A DNA stretch of 64,000 bases from an uncultured archaeon (lineage in GTDB: Archaea; Aenigmatarchaeota; Aenigmatarchaeia; PWEA01; JAGHBM01). The stretch's first letter is position 1, and every line of letters starts with the position of its first letter. The notes beneath the pieces are model-generated. The model saw nothing but the letters and a program-made list of their open reading frames with translations, did no database searches and was not told the DNA's origin. Location: positions 86,436-150,435 of the forward strand of contig CAZOZN010000003.1 in the NCBI GenBank assembly GCA_964584335.1, given 5' to 3'. A program made the position numbers and the translations under genes. Of this stretch, positions 2,635 to 61,072 are shown one piece after another.

Positions 2635-2741
2635 AAAATCTCCAATATAAACATTATGTTAATGTAAATTATAAATGTTTTATAATATTTTATAATGATT
2701 TTTGTAAGGTTTAAATAGTTTTTGTTACCAATTAGTGATTT

Positions 2742-3029
2742 ATGAAGTATAAAAAAGTAGATAACACGTGGGGGATGCCATGCCCAGAATCTGTTTATGA
2801 AGAAGTTTCATCTACTTACGGTGAGCTTCTTAGGGATGGTGGTTTTAGAGCATGGGAAGACGTTGACGTAAAAAGGCTTTCTTATCTTTTCATTGTTAAA
2901 GATTCTATAAGAAGGCTCGATAAAAAGGATGATGAGTGTTATAAAGCTCTTAATGAAATAGTTCCTTACATAGATAGTATATATGGGGATGTTTCTCACG
3001 AACTTGATGGTGTTGAAATAGATTTTTAA
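2742..3029 (+). CDS. hypothetical small protein
   Basis: 95-codon ORF in an intergenic position; no recognisable motif. Confidence 0.25.
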   Translation: MKYKKVDNTWGMPCPESVYEEVSSTYGELLRDGGFRAWEDVDVKRLSYLFIVKDSIRRLDKKDDECYKALNEIVPYIDSIYGDVSHELDGVEIDF

Positions 3030-5718: not shown

Positions 5719-6915
5719 TTATTTAATTTTGTGCTTTTTTATTAATTTTCCTAATCTTTCTATACCTTTTTCTATTTTATCTTCATCAGCATTGCTAAAG
5801 TTAAGTCTCATTGAATCATGACCAGAGCCGTCAACACAAAATGCAGCACCATGTATATAGGCAACTTTGTTCTTTATTGCTTCAGAAAATAATTTTTCAG
5901 TATCTATTTTTTTTGGTATTTTAACCCATAGAAACATACCACCGTCAGGTTTTTCACATCTACAACCTTCGGGAAAGTGTTTTTTTAATGAATACAACAT
6001 TATATCTCTTTTTTTCTTGTAATTTTTTCTTATTTTTTTAATTTGTTTGTCCATAAAACCCGAGGAAATGTACTCGTTTGACAAGTATTGAGAAAAGATG
6101 TTGGTACAGAGATCAGTGCCTTGTTTTATTATGTTTATTTTTCTTGCAAGTTCTTCTTCTGCAATCATCCATCCCATTCTAAATCCGGGCGCGAAGGTTT
6201 TTGAAAGTGTGCTCATGTATATAACAAGTCCGCTCTTATCCAGACTTTTTATGCTTGGTATTTGTTTACCGGAGAATCTCAATTCCACGTATGGGTCGTC
6301 CTCTATTATAGGTATGTCATACTTTTCGGATATTTCGATTAGATGTTTTCTTCTTTCATATGTCATGGTGACTCCTGCCGGATTATGAAAGTTTGGTATC
6401 GAGTATATCATCTTTACTTTGTTCCTTTCTTCTTTTTTCATTTTCTTTAACTTTTTTTCAAGTTCTTCCGTTTTCATTCCAAAGGAATCAATACCGACAG
6501 TCAAGAATTTCGACTGGTAAATCCTAAAGCTGCATATACCTCCCAGGTAAGTGGGTACTTCAAGGGCTACAAAATCTCCCGGATTTATGAATGTTTTTGT
6601 TACGAGGTCTATTGCCTCTTGGGTACCGTTTGTTATTAAAATATTTTTTTTATTGCATTTTATGCCGAATTTTTTCATTCTTTTAGACAGTGTTTCTCTT
6701 AATTCTACTATACCTTCTGTTATCCCGTATTGTAAGGGGCACGTACCGTATTTTTTTAGTATTTTTTTGCATAGCTTGTCTATTTTTTTTACCGGGAAAG
6801 AATCAGGACTTGGCAGACCACCACCGAAAGATATAATATCTTTCTTGTTGGCCAACTTTAAAAGTTCTCTTATTTCAGAAGCCTTTATCTCATTGGTTCT
6901 TTCAGCAAACCTCAT
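5719..6915 (-). CDS. PLP-dependent aminotransferase, class I/II
   Basis: PLP-lysine motif LSKTFAPGFRMGWM; N-terminal IISFGGGLPSP; 398 aa. Confidence 0.8.
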   Translation of the reverse strand: MRFAERTNEIKASEIRELLKLANKKDIISFGGGLPSPDSFPVKKIDKLCKKILKKYGTCPLQYGITEGIVELRETLSKRMKKFGIKCNKKNILITNGTQEAIDLVTKTFINPGDFVALEVPTYLGGICSFRIYQSKFLTVGIDSFGMKTEELEKKLKKMKKEERNKVKMIYSIPNFHNPAGVTMTYERRKHLIEISEKYDIPIIEDDPYVELRFSGKQIPSIKSLDKSGLVIYMSTLSKTFAPGFRMGWMIAEEELARKINIIKQGTDLCTNIFSQYLSNEYISSGFMDKQIKKIRKNYKKKRDIMLYSLKKHFPEGCRCEKPDGGMFLWVKIPKKIDTEKLFSEAIKNKVAYIHGAAFCVDGSGHDSMRLNFSNADEDKIEKGIERLGKLIKKHKIK

Positions 6916-10592: not shown

Positions 10593-10650
10593 TGAATATA
10601 TATTCAATACATGTAATGAATAAGTATTCATTAAACTTTTAGAAAAGTTT
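10593..10650. promoter_or_regulatory. three consecutive perfect palindromes upstream of the DUF5320 operon
   Basis: TGAATATATATTCA (10593-10606), AATGAATAAGTATTCATT (10615-10632) and AAACTTTTAGAAAAGTTT (10633-10650); the first two share half-sites TGAATA-N2-TATTCA with centres 24 bp apart. Confidence 0.45.
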
Positions 10651-10687
10651 AATCAAAATCTAAAAAACAAAAAAGAGGTGATTTTAT

Positions 10688-12153: not shown

Positions 12154-12265
12154 AAAACAACAAAACAAGTTTTGAATTTTTCACTTTTTATGGAGGTGTT
12201 TTAAAATGAAAAACAACAAAACAAGTTTTGAATTTTTCAATTCTTATAGGGGTGTTTTAAAATGA
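12137..12265 (+). repeat. 56-bp tandem duplication (2.3 copies) of the permease 3' end plus the nifX-like RBS and start, creating two 19-codon coupled uORFs
   Basis: Units GGTGTTTTAAAATGAAAAACAACAAAACAAGTTTTGAATTTTTCA at 12138-12193 and 12194-12249, plus a partial third. uORFs at 12150-12209 and 12206-12265 (MKNNKTSFEFF...GVLK) each end in ATGA overlapping the next start. Confidence 0.7.
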
Positions 12266-17555: not shown

Positions 17556-19243
17556 GACCTTTCTTTTATTTCATTTTTAATATCTTTAATGAATTCGTCT
17601 TTATTAACTCCGTAGTCTATTTTACCGTTTCTTCTTACTGCTATTGTACCCTTTTCCTCTTCCTTGTCTCCTATAACTATTATATATGGTATCTTTTCCA
17701 GTTCTGCGTTTCTAATTCTTCCTTGCATTGGAGCACTTTCCAAGTCTATTTCTGCTCTAATACCTTCTTTTTCAAATTCTTTGTAGAGTTTTTTTGATGT
17801 TTCTTTGTTGCGGTCGGTAAAAGAAAGTATTTTTGCCTGCACCGGCGCTAGCCATATTGGAAGATGGCCATTTGTATGCTCTAAAAGTATTCCAATAAAT
17901 CTTTCCATGCTTCCGTAAACGGTTCTGTGTACCATTACAGGCTTGTGTTCTTTGTTATCCTTTCCCGTATATTTTAAGTCAAACCTTTCCGGCATTGCAA
18001 AATCTAATTGTATTGTTGCGCATTGCCAAGTCCTGTTTAGGCTATCTTTTACATGAAAGTCTATTTTGGGACCGTAGAATGCTCCGTCTCCCTCGTTTAT
18101 CTTGTGTTTTATTTTCTTTTTTTCAAGAACATTTTTTAGAATATCTTCTGCCCTGTCCCACATTTCATCGGTACCTATTCTTTTTTGCGGCCTTGTTGAA
18201 AGTTCAACAGAGTAGCTAAACCCGAATTTTTTATAGAACTTGTCGGTCAGCTCTATTATATTTATTATTTCACTTTCTAGTTGCTCTTCCATACAATATA
18301 TGTGAGCATCGTCTTGGGTAAATTTTATTACTCTAAAAAGCCCGCCCAAAACACCGGAAAGCTCTTGCCTGTAAACCACACCCAGCTCTCCTACTCTTAG
18401 TGGAAAGTCCTTGTAAGACTTTGGTGAGTTTTTAAAGATTAGTATACCTCCTGGACAGTTCATTGGTTTTACTGCAAATTTCCTTTCCTCGTAATCTGTA
18501 AGAAATATATTTTCCTTGTATTTGTTCCAGTGGCCTGATATACACCACAATTTTTTATCGAGAATTTGAGGAGTTGAAATTTCCTTGTATCCAGCTTTTC
18601 TGTGTTCCTCTCTCCAGTATTCTACCAGTTCCTTGTAAATTGTATAACCCTTATCATGCCAGAAAACCATTCCGGGGGCCATCTCGCTAAATGAGAAAAG
18701 ATCCATTTCCTGTCCCAGAATCCTATGGTCGTTTGGTTCCAGTTTATCTCTCATTATTTTGGTTTTTGATATTTCTCTGAGTAGTTTTTTATAGTCAAAA
18801 TCTTCTTCCTCTTCACTTTCACTTTCGGGTTTTATTTCCCTGCTTAGTTCCGAGAGAGGATGACCTTTTACTGAAATCTCAAATGCTTTATACCACCCGA
18901 AAGGCATTTTTTGTACTTCATATTTTTCTTTTTTAAAGTAATCAAACAATCCGTTTAAGACCTTTTGTGCAGTCGCAGGAGATGATGGTTTTTGGCTAAG
19001 ATGTACGTAAGGGTATATTACTATTTCTTTTGCTTTCACTTGTTCATAGACATTTTTTATTTCCTTTACCCCACTCTCCACCACTTCCTTGGTATTTTTT
19101 TCATCACCTTTCTCTACAGAAGTAAATATAACCAATGTTTCCTTTGAAACCATTTCCTTTTTTTCTATCTCATCGGCATTTTTAATAGCCCTTTTCGTAG
19201 GCCTTACTTTTATATAATCGGAATGCAAACACAAAATTTTCAT
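17552..19243 (-). CDS. thrS: threonyl-tRNA synthetase, archaeal type with N-terminal editing domain
   Basis: N-terminus MKILCLHSDYIKV (archaeal ThrRS editing domain); RVIKFTQDDAHIYC; class II motif 3; C-terminal anticodon-binding domain. Confidence 0.85.
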   Translation of the reverse strand: MKILCLHSDYIKVRPTKRAIKNADEIEKKEMVSKETLVIFTSVEKGDEKNTKEVVESGVKEIKNVYEQVKAKEIVIYPYVHLSQKPSSPATAQKVLNGLFDYFKKEKYEVQKMPFGWYKAFEISVKGHPLSELSREIKPESESEEEEDFDYKKLLREISKTKIMRDKLEPNDHRILGQEMDLFSFSEMAPGMVFWHDKGYTIYKELVEYWREEHRKAGYKEISTPQILDKKLWCISGHWNKYKENIFLTDYEERKFAVKPMNCPGGILIFKNSPKSYKDFPLRVGELGVVYRQELSGVLGGLFRVIKFTQDDAHIYCMEEQLESEIINIIELTDKFYKKFGFSYSVELSTRPQKRIGTDEMWDRAEDILKNVLEKKKIKHKINEGDGAFYGPKIDFHVKDSLNRTWQCATIQLDFAMPERFDLKYTGKDNKEHKPVMVHRTVYGSMERFIGILLEHTNGHLPIWLAPVQAKILSFTDRNKETSKKLYKEFEKEGIRAEIDLESAPMQGRIRNAELEKIPYIIVIGDKEEEKGTIAVRRNGKIDYGVNKDEFIKDIKNEIKERS

Positions 19244-19319
19244 TTTAATCCCTTATTTAATACTTAAGAATAAACTTAATAAATGTTTGGTATCAATAAA
19301 TAGTATCTAAATAGTCCCA

Positions 19320-19660
19320 GTACCCGTAGAAAACTTTTTAAAAAGTTTTATCAAAACTTCTACGGAAGAATTAATTAATATAGCCCCGTAGTCTAGAAAG
19401 TTTTTCTCTTTTACAAAAGAGAAACCCTTTAGGGAAAGAGAAAGCTCTTTGACTTGGATAATGGCCAAGGATTTCGGGCTTTGGACACGCTTCCAAAGCG
19501 TTGAGGCGAAAGCCTGTGAAAGGAAGAAACCCGGAGACAGCGGTTCGAAAACAAAACCTTTTTCATAAAAAGGCTTTGTATTCCCAAAAACTTGCAAATC
19601 CGAAGGATTTGTTAAGGGTTGGATAACGAAATTCCGCTCGGGGCTACCAAATTTAATTTT
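19320..19660 (+). ncRNA. GC-rich structured RNA candidate, class undetermined
   Basis: ~50% GC island in a ~30% GC genome with at least 7 local hairpins, including a GNRA tetraloop GGC-GAAA-GCC at 19505-19514, GCTTTGGA/TCCAAAGC at 19478-19499 and CCTTTTT/AAAAAGG at 19557-19573; not coding. Confidence 0.3.
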
Positions 19661-19686
19661 ATTAATAATATTTTTTTAATAATATT

Positions 19687-20763
19687 ATGTCTCTGAAGTA
19701 CAGTAGTCTGATTAGGCAGCATTTATCTATTCTTAAAAATCTTCAATACGAATCTGGTCTTTTTGCTGCATCGAAGAAAAGGTCAAGTACAGGATATAAC
19801 AAAAGCTGGTTACGTGACAATTTTTACGAGTGTTTGGCCTTCCAAGTATTGGATGATTGGGATACTGTTTTTAAGACTTACAAATCAATTTTAAGAATTT
19901 TTGAAAAACACGAATACAAGATAGACCGTGCAATTTCAAAAAAACCCGAACACAGGCACGAATATATTCATGCCCGTTATCACCCTCATACATTTGACGA
20001 ATTTTGGGACGACTGGGGCAATAAGCAGAACGACTCGATAGGAGCTATACTTTTTGCTATAGGAAGTCTGATGGAAAAAGGTAAACAAATTTTAACTAGA
20101 GATAAGGATTATGTCTTGGTTCAAAAACTGGTTGATTACTTGTCAACACTGGAGTACTGGCATGACGAGGATAGTGGTATGTGGGAAGAGGATGAGGAAG
20201 TTCATGCTTCTTCTATAGGCGCTTGTCTGGCTGGTCTTAATAAGGTCAGCAAGATAGATGGCATAAAAGTTGACAGGAAGTTAATAAAAAATGGAAAAAA
20301 AGCACTGCATAATATCTTGCCACGTGAATCAAAGAGTAAATTTGTTGATTTGGCTTTACTATCTCTGATTTGGCCTTACGAAGTTACTAGTAAGACCGAG
20401 ACAAGGGAAATATTAAACAATGTCAGGTATCATTTGGAAAGGAGTAGGGGCGTTATTCGTTACAAAAATGACCATTATTATAATAAGAACCCCGATGGTT
20501 ATTCTGAAGAAGCAGAATGGACTTTTGGTTTTAGTTGGTTGGCAATAATTTATAATAAACTAGGAATGTTAAGAGTAGCAAAAAAATATGAAAAACTTGC
20601 TGTTGAAACAACAACTGAAAGCGGGATACCAGAGCTTTACTTTTCACATACAGACAAATATAATCCAAACACACCGTTGGGTTGGTCAGAATCCCTTTTT
20701 ATAATTGCTCTTTATAATATCAATAAAAAACACAAAGGCAACAAAAATGCAGTTAAAAAATAA
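19687..20763 (+). CDS. glycoside hydrolase family 15-like (glucoamylase/glucodextranase-type (alpha/alpha)6 barrel)
   Basis: WLRDN and GMWEE catalytic motifs; 358 aa. Confidence 0.65.
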   Translation: MSLKYSSLIRQHLSILKNLQYESGLFAASKKRSSTGYNKSWLRDNFYECLAFQVLDDWDTVFKTYKSILRIFEKHEYKIDRAISKKPEHRHEYIHARYHPHTFDEFWDDWGNKQNDSIGAILFAIGSLMEKGKQILTRDKDYVLVQKLVDYLSTLEYWHDEDSGMWEEDEEVHASSIGACLAGLNKVSKIDGIKVDRKLIKNGKKALHNILPRESKSKFVDLALLSLIWPYEVTSKTETREILNNVRYHLERSRGVIRYKNDHYYNKNPDGYSEEAEWTFGFSWLAIIYNKLGMLRVAKKYEKLAVETTTESGIPELYFSHTDKYNPNTPLGWSESLFIIALYNINKKHKGNKNAVKK

Positions 20764-43207: not shown

Positions 43208-43223
43208 GATATTGTTTAATAAA

Positions 43224-43358
43224 TACACCCCCACACTGGGAAGGACGGTAGGGATTTTCTCACCGTCCAACCCACACCCCCCACATTACGGTCATTCGAT
43301 GACACACCCCCACACACTGGGAAGGGCGGGCAACGGTAATTATTTTTCCGCCCTTTCC
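43224..43358. repeat. C-rich direct repeat plus GC-rich hairpin module between convergent genes
   Basis: ACACCCCCACAC(AC)TGGGAAGGRCGG at 43225-43248 and 43304-43329, each running into a hairpin (GGACGGT/ACCGTCC at 43243-43268; 11-bp stem at 43319-43358). Confidence 0.5.
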
Positions 43359-43489
43359 TAATTCCCCCAAAGGCTAAAACATGTACAATAAAATATCAAA
43401 ATTAAAAAGAAAGGTATCCGAGAGAGTTATGGTTGTAGCAGGAGCTTTATCTATATTTATTGCCATAGTGCTTTGAATTAATATGCTGC

Positions 43490-60947: not shown

Positions 60948-61072
60948 ATGGTAGCGGGGGGTGGATTTGAACCACCGACCTCAGGGTTATGAGCCCTGCG
61001 AGCATTCTGTTTACACCCAGGTTTTATGAACCAAGGAAGTCTCCAGGCTGCTCCACCCCGCTATTTAGATAT
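60948..61072 (-). tRNA. tRNA-Met: tRNA-Met (CAU), initiator-like, with a ~37-nt non-canonical intron in the D-loop
   Basis: Exons read AGCGGGGUGGAGCAGCCUGG ... GCUCG CAGGG CUCAUAA CCCUG AGGUC GGUGG UUCAAAU CCACC (C) CCCCGCU A CCA. A1:U72 and three G:C pairs at 29-31/39-41 mark it as an initiator. The insert AGACTTCCTTGGTTCATAAAACCTGGGTGTAAACAG lies between G19 and the 3' D-stem strand. A 7-C run gives one extra C at the T-stem/acceptor junction. Confidence 0.75.

Follow-up and report, generated by a model that had tools for sequence, protein, structure and literature searches.

What is encoded in the hairpin-dense stretch between thrS and a gene for a GH15-family protein is the question raised by this archaeal locus, which lies in the 64-kb stretch of DNA analysed here (64,000 nt; hereafter the window). 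The earlier note had described positions 19320-19660 as a non-coding island of ~340 nt with ~50% GC in a ~30% GC background, and had proposed a structured RNA of unknown class. Pfam domains were found in both flanking genes, in agreement with the names given to them in that note. thrS is located on the minus strand, divergent from the gene described below, and encodes an archaeal-type enzyme with an editing domain (PF00587/PF03129/PF08915). The other flank is occupied by the GH15 gene (PF00723, E = 6e-18; start codon at 19687), and MazG-like and aTrm56 genes are found farther along past it. The best named relatives of the ThrRS are encoded in MAGs of Aenigmarchaeota, Nanoarchaeota, and Woesearchaeota (57-71% identity), which indicates that the host is a DPANN archaeon. 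Neither of the two GC values was reproduced. The GC content was 34% over the whole window, 38.7% over 19320-19660, and 43.7% over 19381-19648, and it was ~50% only in the central 110 nt (19440-19550).

The minimum free energy (MFE) fold of 19380-19650 had an energy of -92.3 kcal/mol (z = -5.1 relative to dinucleotide shuffles). The 96-aa open reading frame on the minus strand (19307-19597) does exist, and its lack of a Pfam match supports the earlier opinion that it is not credible as a coding sequence. Together with the fold, this is consistent with the description of the interval as non-coding and hairpin-dense. The reverse strand of 19380-19650 folded as well (z = -5.0). Since both strands are equally stable, the strand is not identifiable from folding energy. 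The MFE fold is closed by a terminal helix, UAGCCCCG/CGGGGCUA, with the acceptor stem AGCCCCG/CGGGGCU.

Rfam at gathering thresholds detected one tRNA elsewhere in the 64-kb window (60952-61022) and no match at the locus. A scan of 19150-19800 at E <= 10 returned only sub-threshold noise (BTnc231, lncRNA fragments) and no RNase P, SRP, or riboswitch, and ARAGORN found no tRNA anywhere in the whole unspliced window. These searches agree with the earlier note, in which no SRP RNA or RNase P RNA consensus could be matched by eye, and the element is neither of these RNAs. The Rfam comparison, which had been suggested as a check, gave no match to these families, and the class was found through the comparison with relatives described below.

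No match was obtained when the locus was compared by nhmmer with 31 thrS loci of species-representative genomes, these relatives being too distant. Closer relatives were found via the protein database, from which the contigs encoding ThrRS homologues with 69-77% identity were identified. In L033/L034, L036, and L032, the region upstream of thrS has two blocks in common with the window, a 5' block, TAGCCCCGTAGTCTAG(TGGCCAAGGAT.YCGGGCTTTGG), and a 3' block, GGTTCGAA...CCGCTCGGGGCTACCA, the latter being unseen in L032, whose contig ends within the gene. It was revealed that the shared blocks represent the acceptor stem, D-arm, anticodon arm (CUUUGGA loop), and T-arm of an archaeal tRNA-Gln(UUG), with unrelated sequence between them. 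Because the conserved 5' and 3' blocks are tRNA exons, RNase P RNA and SRP RNA were dropped as candidates. A novel or strongly diverged class of long structured RNA, whether a reduced RNase P RNA, an SRP RNA, or another RNA, would account for the length of ~270 nt, the terminal helix, the stable fold (z = -5), and a GNRA hairpin, and DPANN RNAs can escape Rfam models. However, neither RNase P nor SRP gave an Rfam match even at E <= 10, the conserved blocks coincide exactly with the four segments of a tRNA, the remaining sequence being variable in length and missing from relatives, and the terminal helix corresponds to the acceptor stem of a tRNA, with ACCA after it. We consider such an RNA very improbable.

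When four segments of the plus strand (19382-19396, 19462-19484, 19529-19549, and 19633-19649) were joined, they yielded a 76-nt sequence that ARAGORN identified as tRNA-Gln(ttg) with a flawless cloverleaf (7/4/5/5-bp stems and the T-loop UUCGAAU), and nothing was identified in the unspliced sequence. The gene is composed of the following parts.

19382-19396, plus strand: exon 1, tRNA positions 1-15 (acceptor 5' strand, U8 A9, D-stem 5' strand, A14 G15)
19397-19461, plus strand: intron 1, 65 nt, D-loop 15/16, relaxed BHB of the HBh' type
19462-19484, plus strand: exon 2, positions 16-37 (rest of the D-arm, anticodon stem 5' strand, and loop, with UUG at 19481-19483)
19485-19528, plus strand: intron 2, 44 nt, canonical 37/38
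19529-19549, plus strand: exon 3, positions 38-59 (anticodon stem 3' strand, variable loop AGAC, T-stem AGCGG, T-loop UUCGAA)
19550-19632, plus strand: intron 3, 83 nt, T-loop 59/60, relaxed BHB of the hBH type
19633-19649, plus strand: exon 4, positions 60-76 (U60, T-stem CCGCU, acceptor CGGGGCU, discriminator A, CCA)

With its four exons, three introns, and CCA encoded at 19647-19649, the interval 19382-19649 (+) is very likely a functional-looking tRNA-Gln(UUG) gene of a DPANN archaeon, with three introns of the bulge-helix-bulge (BHB) type, next to thrS. The earlier proposal of a structured non-coding RNA on the plus strand therefore holds, since the spliced exons form tRNA-Gln, and the locus is neither a protein gene nor merely the leader of the GH15 mRNA. 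Its class, on the other hand, is not unknown. The GNRA hairpin GGC-GAAA-GCC that had been pointed out is present at 19505-19514, within the canonical intron. The pair AUUUCGGGCU ... AACCCGGAGA, which had been regarded as weakly P4-like, is also real, but it is the anticodon stem of the tRNA (27-31/39-43) split by the 37/38 intron and not P4. The GC content was 61.8% in the joined exons, 50% in intron 2, 32% in intron 1, and about 32-33% in intron 3, indicating that the GC signal of the island comes from the four tRNA exons and intron 2. Since the three introns cut the gene into four pieces, standard tRNA and RNA-family finders miss it.

Archaeal introns are cut at the BHB motif, in which a 4-bp central helix (H) lies between two 3-nt bulges, after the second bulge nucleotide, and some enzymes also accept the relaxed hBH and HBh' forms (PMC4090602). 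The junctions were set by exon homology alone and then tested for BHB geometry, and the background rate of this geometry was measured. A loose BHB scan was not used because it gave many chance matches in AT-rich sequence. At intron 1, H is formed by GUCU (19391-19394) and GGAU (19456-19459), the bulges are AG^A and AA^U, h' is a 5-bp helix of AAGUU (19398-19402) and GACUU (19451-19455), and h has no pairs. At intron 2, h has 7 bp (the 5-bp anticodon stem plus two pairs), H is formed by CUUU (19479-19482) and GAAG (19523-19526), the bulges are GG^A and AA^A, and h' has just 1 bp. At intron 3, h is the 5-bp T-stem, H is formed by UUCG (tRNA positions 54-57) and CGAA (19627-19630), the bulges are AA^A and AU^U, and h' has no pairs. 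Thus, at each of the three junction pairs, a central helix of 4 bp is combined with two bulges of 3 nt and with 5 bp or more of flanking helix, and five junction pairs of L011, L033, and L036 also fit the BHB geometry. Equally good geometry was found for 0.02-0.09% of the position pairs in the examined precursors (0.09% in the window precursor). A strict hBHBh' motif with a strong h' was present at none of the three sites of the window. The D-loop and T-loop sites are relaxed half-motifs, which would require an enzyme of broad specificity.

On the basis of these features, a splicing pathway can be proposed. Transcription of the plus strand would produce a precursor of ~270-290 nt, whose 3' end may be set by a T-run.

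19671-19677, plus strand: run of seven T, read from the sequence, 22 nt past the CCA and shortly ahead of the GH15 start codon (19687)

This run is likely the archaeal oligo-T terminator of the tRNA transcript. EndA would then remove the three introns, with a BHB forming at each exon-intron pair and the cut falling after nucleotide 2 of each 3-nt bulge, and an RNA ligase of the RtcB type would join the four exons into the 76-nt tRNA, in which CCA is already encoded. The genome would be expected to encode an EndA that accepts relaxed motifs, namely HBh' only at the D-loop site and hBH only at the T-loop site. A motif search for RtcB within the 64-kb window found none.

The tRNA-Gln gene adjoins thrS also in L011, L033/L034, L036, and L069, and the number of introns differs among these loci. 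The gene of L011, a Nanoarchaeota MAG, has the 37/38 intron only, those of L033/L034 and L036 are interrupted at both 37/38 and 59/60, and that of L069 has two introns at another pair of sites. In L037, an Aenigmarchaeota MAG, a tRNA-Gln(CUG) gene upstream of thrS (2690-2780 (-)) has a D-loop insertion of ~35 nt and no 37/38 intron. The anticodon loop of this tRNA is CCCUGGA, with C instead of U at position 33. The number of introns at fixed sites ranges from one to three among relatives that share the thrS neighbour, a stepwise record of intron gain or loss that is rare outside Thermoproteales.

To widen the comparison, metagenome contigs were scanned with an exact pattern of exon 1 followed by two purines, which yielded 54 stretches; the 15-mer of exon 1 is identical in these and in L032, L033, and L036. 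Twenty-eight of the 54 stretches, the window, and three thrS-linked loci made up a set of 32 precursors. With a spliced aligner and ARAGORN, 26 of the 28 metagenome loci were spliced in silico to tRNA-Gln. Among the 32 aligned loci, 18 were assigned an intron at 15/16 and 11 an intron at 59/60, and further introns were called at 37/38, 53/54, 25/26, and 21/22. Three introns were called in four loci besides the window (L066, L078, L079, and L095); the spliced alignment was imprecise for L058, L061, L082, and the second intron of L095, which were left out of the conclusions. Each of the three introns of the window has homologous counterparts. The 70-nt D-loop intron of L069 is homologous to intron 1, and its h' covaries with that of the window (AAGCCU/AGGCUU vs AAGUU/GACUU). 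The 37/38 introns of L011, L033, L036, L069, and L078 are homologous to intron 2, and the 59/60 introns of L033 (111 nt), L036 (47 nt), L078 (33 nt), and L090 (162 nt) to intron 3.

Covariation with homologous regions had been another check proposed in the earlier note. In the alignment of 25 spliced homologues, 99.4% of the cells in cloverleaf stems were paired, whereas slid-register controls were merely 26-54% paired. Cells in which both sides had changed numbered 76, as compared to 20.4 in shuffles, and none of 500 shuffles reached 76. This strong compensatory change comes from the stems of the anticodon and T arms. No variation was seen in the acceptor stem, in part an effect of the search pattern, in which its 5' strand was fixed. 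The persistence of the same insertion sites and of homologous introns in diverged relatives, together with the covarying stems, indicates selection on the spliced product.

These results bear on two other explanations of the locus. The first is that it represents a decaying tRNA-Gln pseudogene broken by three AT-rich, MITE-like hairpin insertions that are not removed. The introns are indeed AT-rich and full of hairpins, similar hairpins (CYTTTCTYTT..AARAGAAAG) occur at different insertion sites in different loci, and the partial copies of exon 1 upstream of the gene, described below, show that the locus is prone to rearrangement. A pseudogene is nevertheless unlikely, because no damaging change is found in the exons, which fold perfectly, BHB geometry flanks every insertion, and the insertion sites and homologous introns persist in diverged relatives whose stems covary. 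The second is that the region codes for the 96-aa product of the minus strand. Although this reading frame is present in the sequence, it has no match in Pfam, the relatives show indels and differences in intron length that are not multiples of three, as well as large differences in presence and absence, and the conserved blocks are tRNA exons on the opposite strand. Coding by this frame has a negligible probability in our estimation.

The retained reading, a tRNA-Gln gene with three introns, leads to a second question, which concerns the inside of the canonical intron. Intron 2 contains an ordered module around the GNRA hairpin.

19492-19522, plus strand: intron 2 module, consisting of an antisense stretch, a D'-like box, a C-stem hairpin, a bulge, GA, and AAG

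The antisense stretch UCCAAAGC (19492-19499) is complementary without mismatch (8 bp) to tRNA positions 31-37 and the first nucleotide of the intron. Next come UUGA (19501-19504), the hairpin GGC-GAAA-GCC (19505-19514), UGU (19515-19517), GA (19518-19519), and AAG (19520-19522). This order has the layout of a K-turn, in which GA abuts the C-stem on one strand and a 3-nt bulge followed by GA is located on the other. It also agrees with an internal box D'/C' motif of archaeal C/D guide RNAs, and at the sequence level the module is a K-turn of the box C'/D' type.

To evaluate the conservation of this arrangement, the complement to positions 32-37 was located in 16 canonical tRNA-Gln introns, and the four bases starting 5 nt past the base pairing with nucleotide 34 were read. 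A complete complement (6/6) was present in 11 of the 16 introns, and the box was positioned exactly at N+5 from nucleotide 34 in 11/11, these introns being homologous and hence not independent observations. The box was UUGA in seven of them, CUGA in two, UUUA in one, and UUCA in one, and in the same 11 introns it was followed by a stem or loop and then by NNN-GA. The C-stem differs with the lineage (GGC/GCC, GCC/GGC, AGGC/GCCU, AAACUCC/GGAGUUU, and UGACC/GGUCA). Position 6 of C' covaries with position 1 of D', with A:U in 7/9 YUGA introns, G:C in two CUGA introns, and G:U once. In L092, whose anticodon is CUG, the guide base opposite nucleotide 34 is G. These three patterns of covariation speak for the fold.

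Inspection of the introns of the window, L011, L033, and L036 revealed neither a terminal C box ~12 nt upstream of the D'-like box nor a conserved D box ~12 nt downstream of the C'-like box. Within the 64-kb window, which is only part of the genome, no fibrillarin or L7Ae was detected by motif searches and no canonical C/D sRNA by a regex search. Since the anticodon-loop bases engaged in the guide pairing are also those needed for the BHB central helix, only one of the two folds can form at a time. The MFE fold, in which the anticodon loop is paired with the 5' part of intron 2 and the BHB central helix is not formed, counts against the three-intron reading. As one possibility, to which we attach rather less than even weight, intron 2 may be a minimal intron-borne box C'/D' guide, with an L7Ae-binding K-turn and an 8-bp antisense arm, which would direct the 2'-O-methylation of wobble nucleotide 34 of its own tRNA. 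In that case, nucleotide 34 would be methylated first, and the precursor would then refold into the BHB and be spliced. In a weaker version, the K-turn may merely recruit L7Ae to chaperone the folding of the precursor. Taking the two together, a function of the module in guiding or in L7Ae binding is a tentative proposal, which we hold to be possible and not yet probable.

A precedent exists in the euryarchaeal pre-tRNA-Trp, whose intron carries a box C/D guide for Cm34 and Um39 (PMC11408192, PMC7714728), and for tRNA-Gln, Pyrobaculum sR27 is predicted to target U34 in trans (PMC6009581). Both the tRNA-Trp and the tRNA-Gln introns have a sequence antisense to the anticodon loop beside a K-turn box, with nucleotide 34 at N+5, and in both the guide pairing and the BHB exclude each other. 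Unlike the pre-tRNA-Trp guide, the tRNA-Gln intron has a D'/C'-type motif only, without the terminal C and D boxes, and its D'-like box is mostly UUGA and not CUGA. If the guide reading is true, the pre-tRNA-Trp mechanism would have a second and independent example, in DPANN and with half the usual C/D architecture. A functional module would also provide a reason for retaining the intron and would be a compact natural half box C/D guide.

The island had been treated as a single RNA element. It actually merges the tRNA gene (19382-19649) with a separate DNA palindrome and hairpin upstream (19324-19365). As had been noticed, a hairpin of ~43 nt (19324-19343/19346-19365) and a perfect 20-nt palindrome (19330-19349) are both present. 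The upstream region contains the following features.

19311-19329, plus strand: degenerate copy of exon 1, ATAGTCCC..CCCGTAG vs ATAGCCCCGTAG, from the spacer alignment
19324-19365, plus strand: hairpin CCGTAG...CTACGG around the 20-nt palindrome AAAACTTTTTAAAAAGTTTT, outside the mature RNA

The palindrome CTTTTTAAAAAG belongs to a 26-nt motif, AAACTTTT(N1-2)AAAAGTTTNATCAAAA, which occurs twice in the window, at 19331-19356 (+) and 10633-10658 (+). One copy is located 26 nt before tRNA-Gln and the other 30 nt before the ATG (10688) of an unrelated small ORF (MPRGDGTGPNG...). According to the aligned thrS-tRNA spacers, the motif is kept upstream of tRNA-Gln in L036 and L069. It is probably a BRE/TATA-like promoter element with a lineage-specific consensus.

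The degenerate copy of exon 1 in the window sits at the place of the true tRNA 5' end in L032 and L033, the closest relatives. L036 (3262-3276 (-)) and L069 (about 6617-6628) each have at the same place one perfect extra ATAGCCCCGTAGTC, the first 12 nt of exon 1, and L046 has two tandem extra copies (966-980 and 1072-1086) that run in full to position 15. In these loci, the functional exon 1 is found 45-130 nt downstream of the extra copies. Splicing of an upstream copy as a real exon to the gene body was considered and rejected, as there was no BHB at the equivalent positions in L036, L069, and L046. Since no BHB links the copies to the gene body, they are relics and not spliced exons. The 3' boundaries of the copies are at or close to the 15/16 site (position 15 in L046, and divergence after position 12 in L036 and L069), and downstream of each copy is a hairpin similar to the beginning of certain D-loop introns (L053 and L054). 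The copies may have originated by tandem duplication or by integration at the 15/16 site or close to it. Leftovers of exon 1 that end at or near this site hint at how such rearrangements arise.

Archaeal tRNAs with multiple introns are already known, and the present gene is a further example, in a DPANN archaeon. In Thermoproteales, up to three introns per tRNA have been found, which is the reported maximum (PMC4033280, PMC4090602), and tRNA-Pro(UGG) of Pyrobaculum islandicum has introns at 25/26, 37/38, and 56/57 (PMC4090602, PMC4033280). The tRNA-Gln gene likewise combines one canonical with two non-canonical introns at BHB, hBH, or HBh' sites, and similar intron sequences recur at different sites, as they do in Thermoproteales. 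It differs from the P. islandicum tRNA-Pro in that the host belongs to DPANN and is not a crenarchaeote, the tRNA is specific for Gln, the non-canonical sites are 15/16 and 59/60, and the introns are fairly long and AT-rich (65, 44, and 83 nt). Hairpins of the type CYTTTCTYTT-loop-AARAGAAAG recur in introns of L061, L069, L073, L090, and L093 (at 40/41, 15/16, and 59/60) on different contigs. The recurrence of these hairpins at different sites is reminiscent of intron transposition in Thermoproteales.

Ultrasmall archaea are known to have disrupted tRNA genes and EndA enzymes of broad specificity, the epsilon2 type of ARMAN (PMC3239211) and L3-loop alpha4 types (PMC5829648), and the latter study reported more tRNA disruption and incomplete tRNA sets in new DPANN genomes and expected that disrupted genes had gone undetected. 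The present gene resembles the disrupted tRNAs of ARMAN/DPANN in having non-canonical introns in an ultrasmall archaeon, whereas the tRNA-Gln family and its three-intron forms were not taken from these EndA papers (PMC3239211, PMC5829648). The same isoacceptor is interrupted in Haloferax volcanii, where tRNA-Gln(UUG) has a 31-nt canonical intron (PMC7714728), and the 37/38 intron would be removed by EndA in the DPANN gene as it is in Haloferax. In contrast, the Haloferax tRNA-Gln has one intron only and its enzyme is a strict hBHBh' type, and the available portion of that report does not mention a K-turn module.

The tRNA detected by Rfam elsewhere in the window (60952-61022 (-), 32.6 bits) was the 3' two-thirds of tRNA-Met(CAU), whose gene spans 60952-61062 with an A1-U72 pair. 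Its 5' end, AGCGGGGTGGAGCAGCCTGG, is at 61062, and the D-loop has an insertion of ~37 nt; ARAGORN sees the gene only when the insertion is removed. No clean BHB was found at this D-loop insertion, and ARAGORN accepts many junction variants. Judging from tRNA-Gln and tRNA-Met in the window, disrupted tRNAs seem to be common in the host genome. An essential tRNA-Gln is thus invisible to ARAGORN and Rfam, and tRNA-Met is only partly recognised. Since the former was missed and the latter was detected in part, the tRNA sets of DPANN genomes of this kind will look incomplete unless split-aware tools are used.

Several repeats were observed elsewhere in the window. The intergenic region 43208-43360 contains two direct copies of a C-rich unit (ACACCCCCACAC..TGGGAAGGRCGG plus a hairpin), with a local GC content of up to 62% and no Rfam match. 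Near-identical direct repeats of gene-start regions were found at 12154-12265 and at 10676-10705/10975-11005, where AAAACAACAAAACAAGTTTTGAATTTTTCA..GGTGTTTTAAAATGAAAA is present twice and GGAGGTGATTTTATATGCCAAGAGGAGAT is also present twice. These gene-start repeats suggest tandem paralogous small genes.
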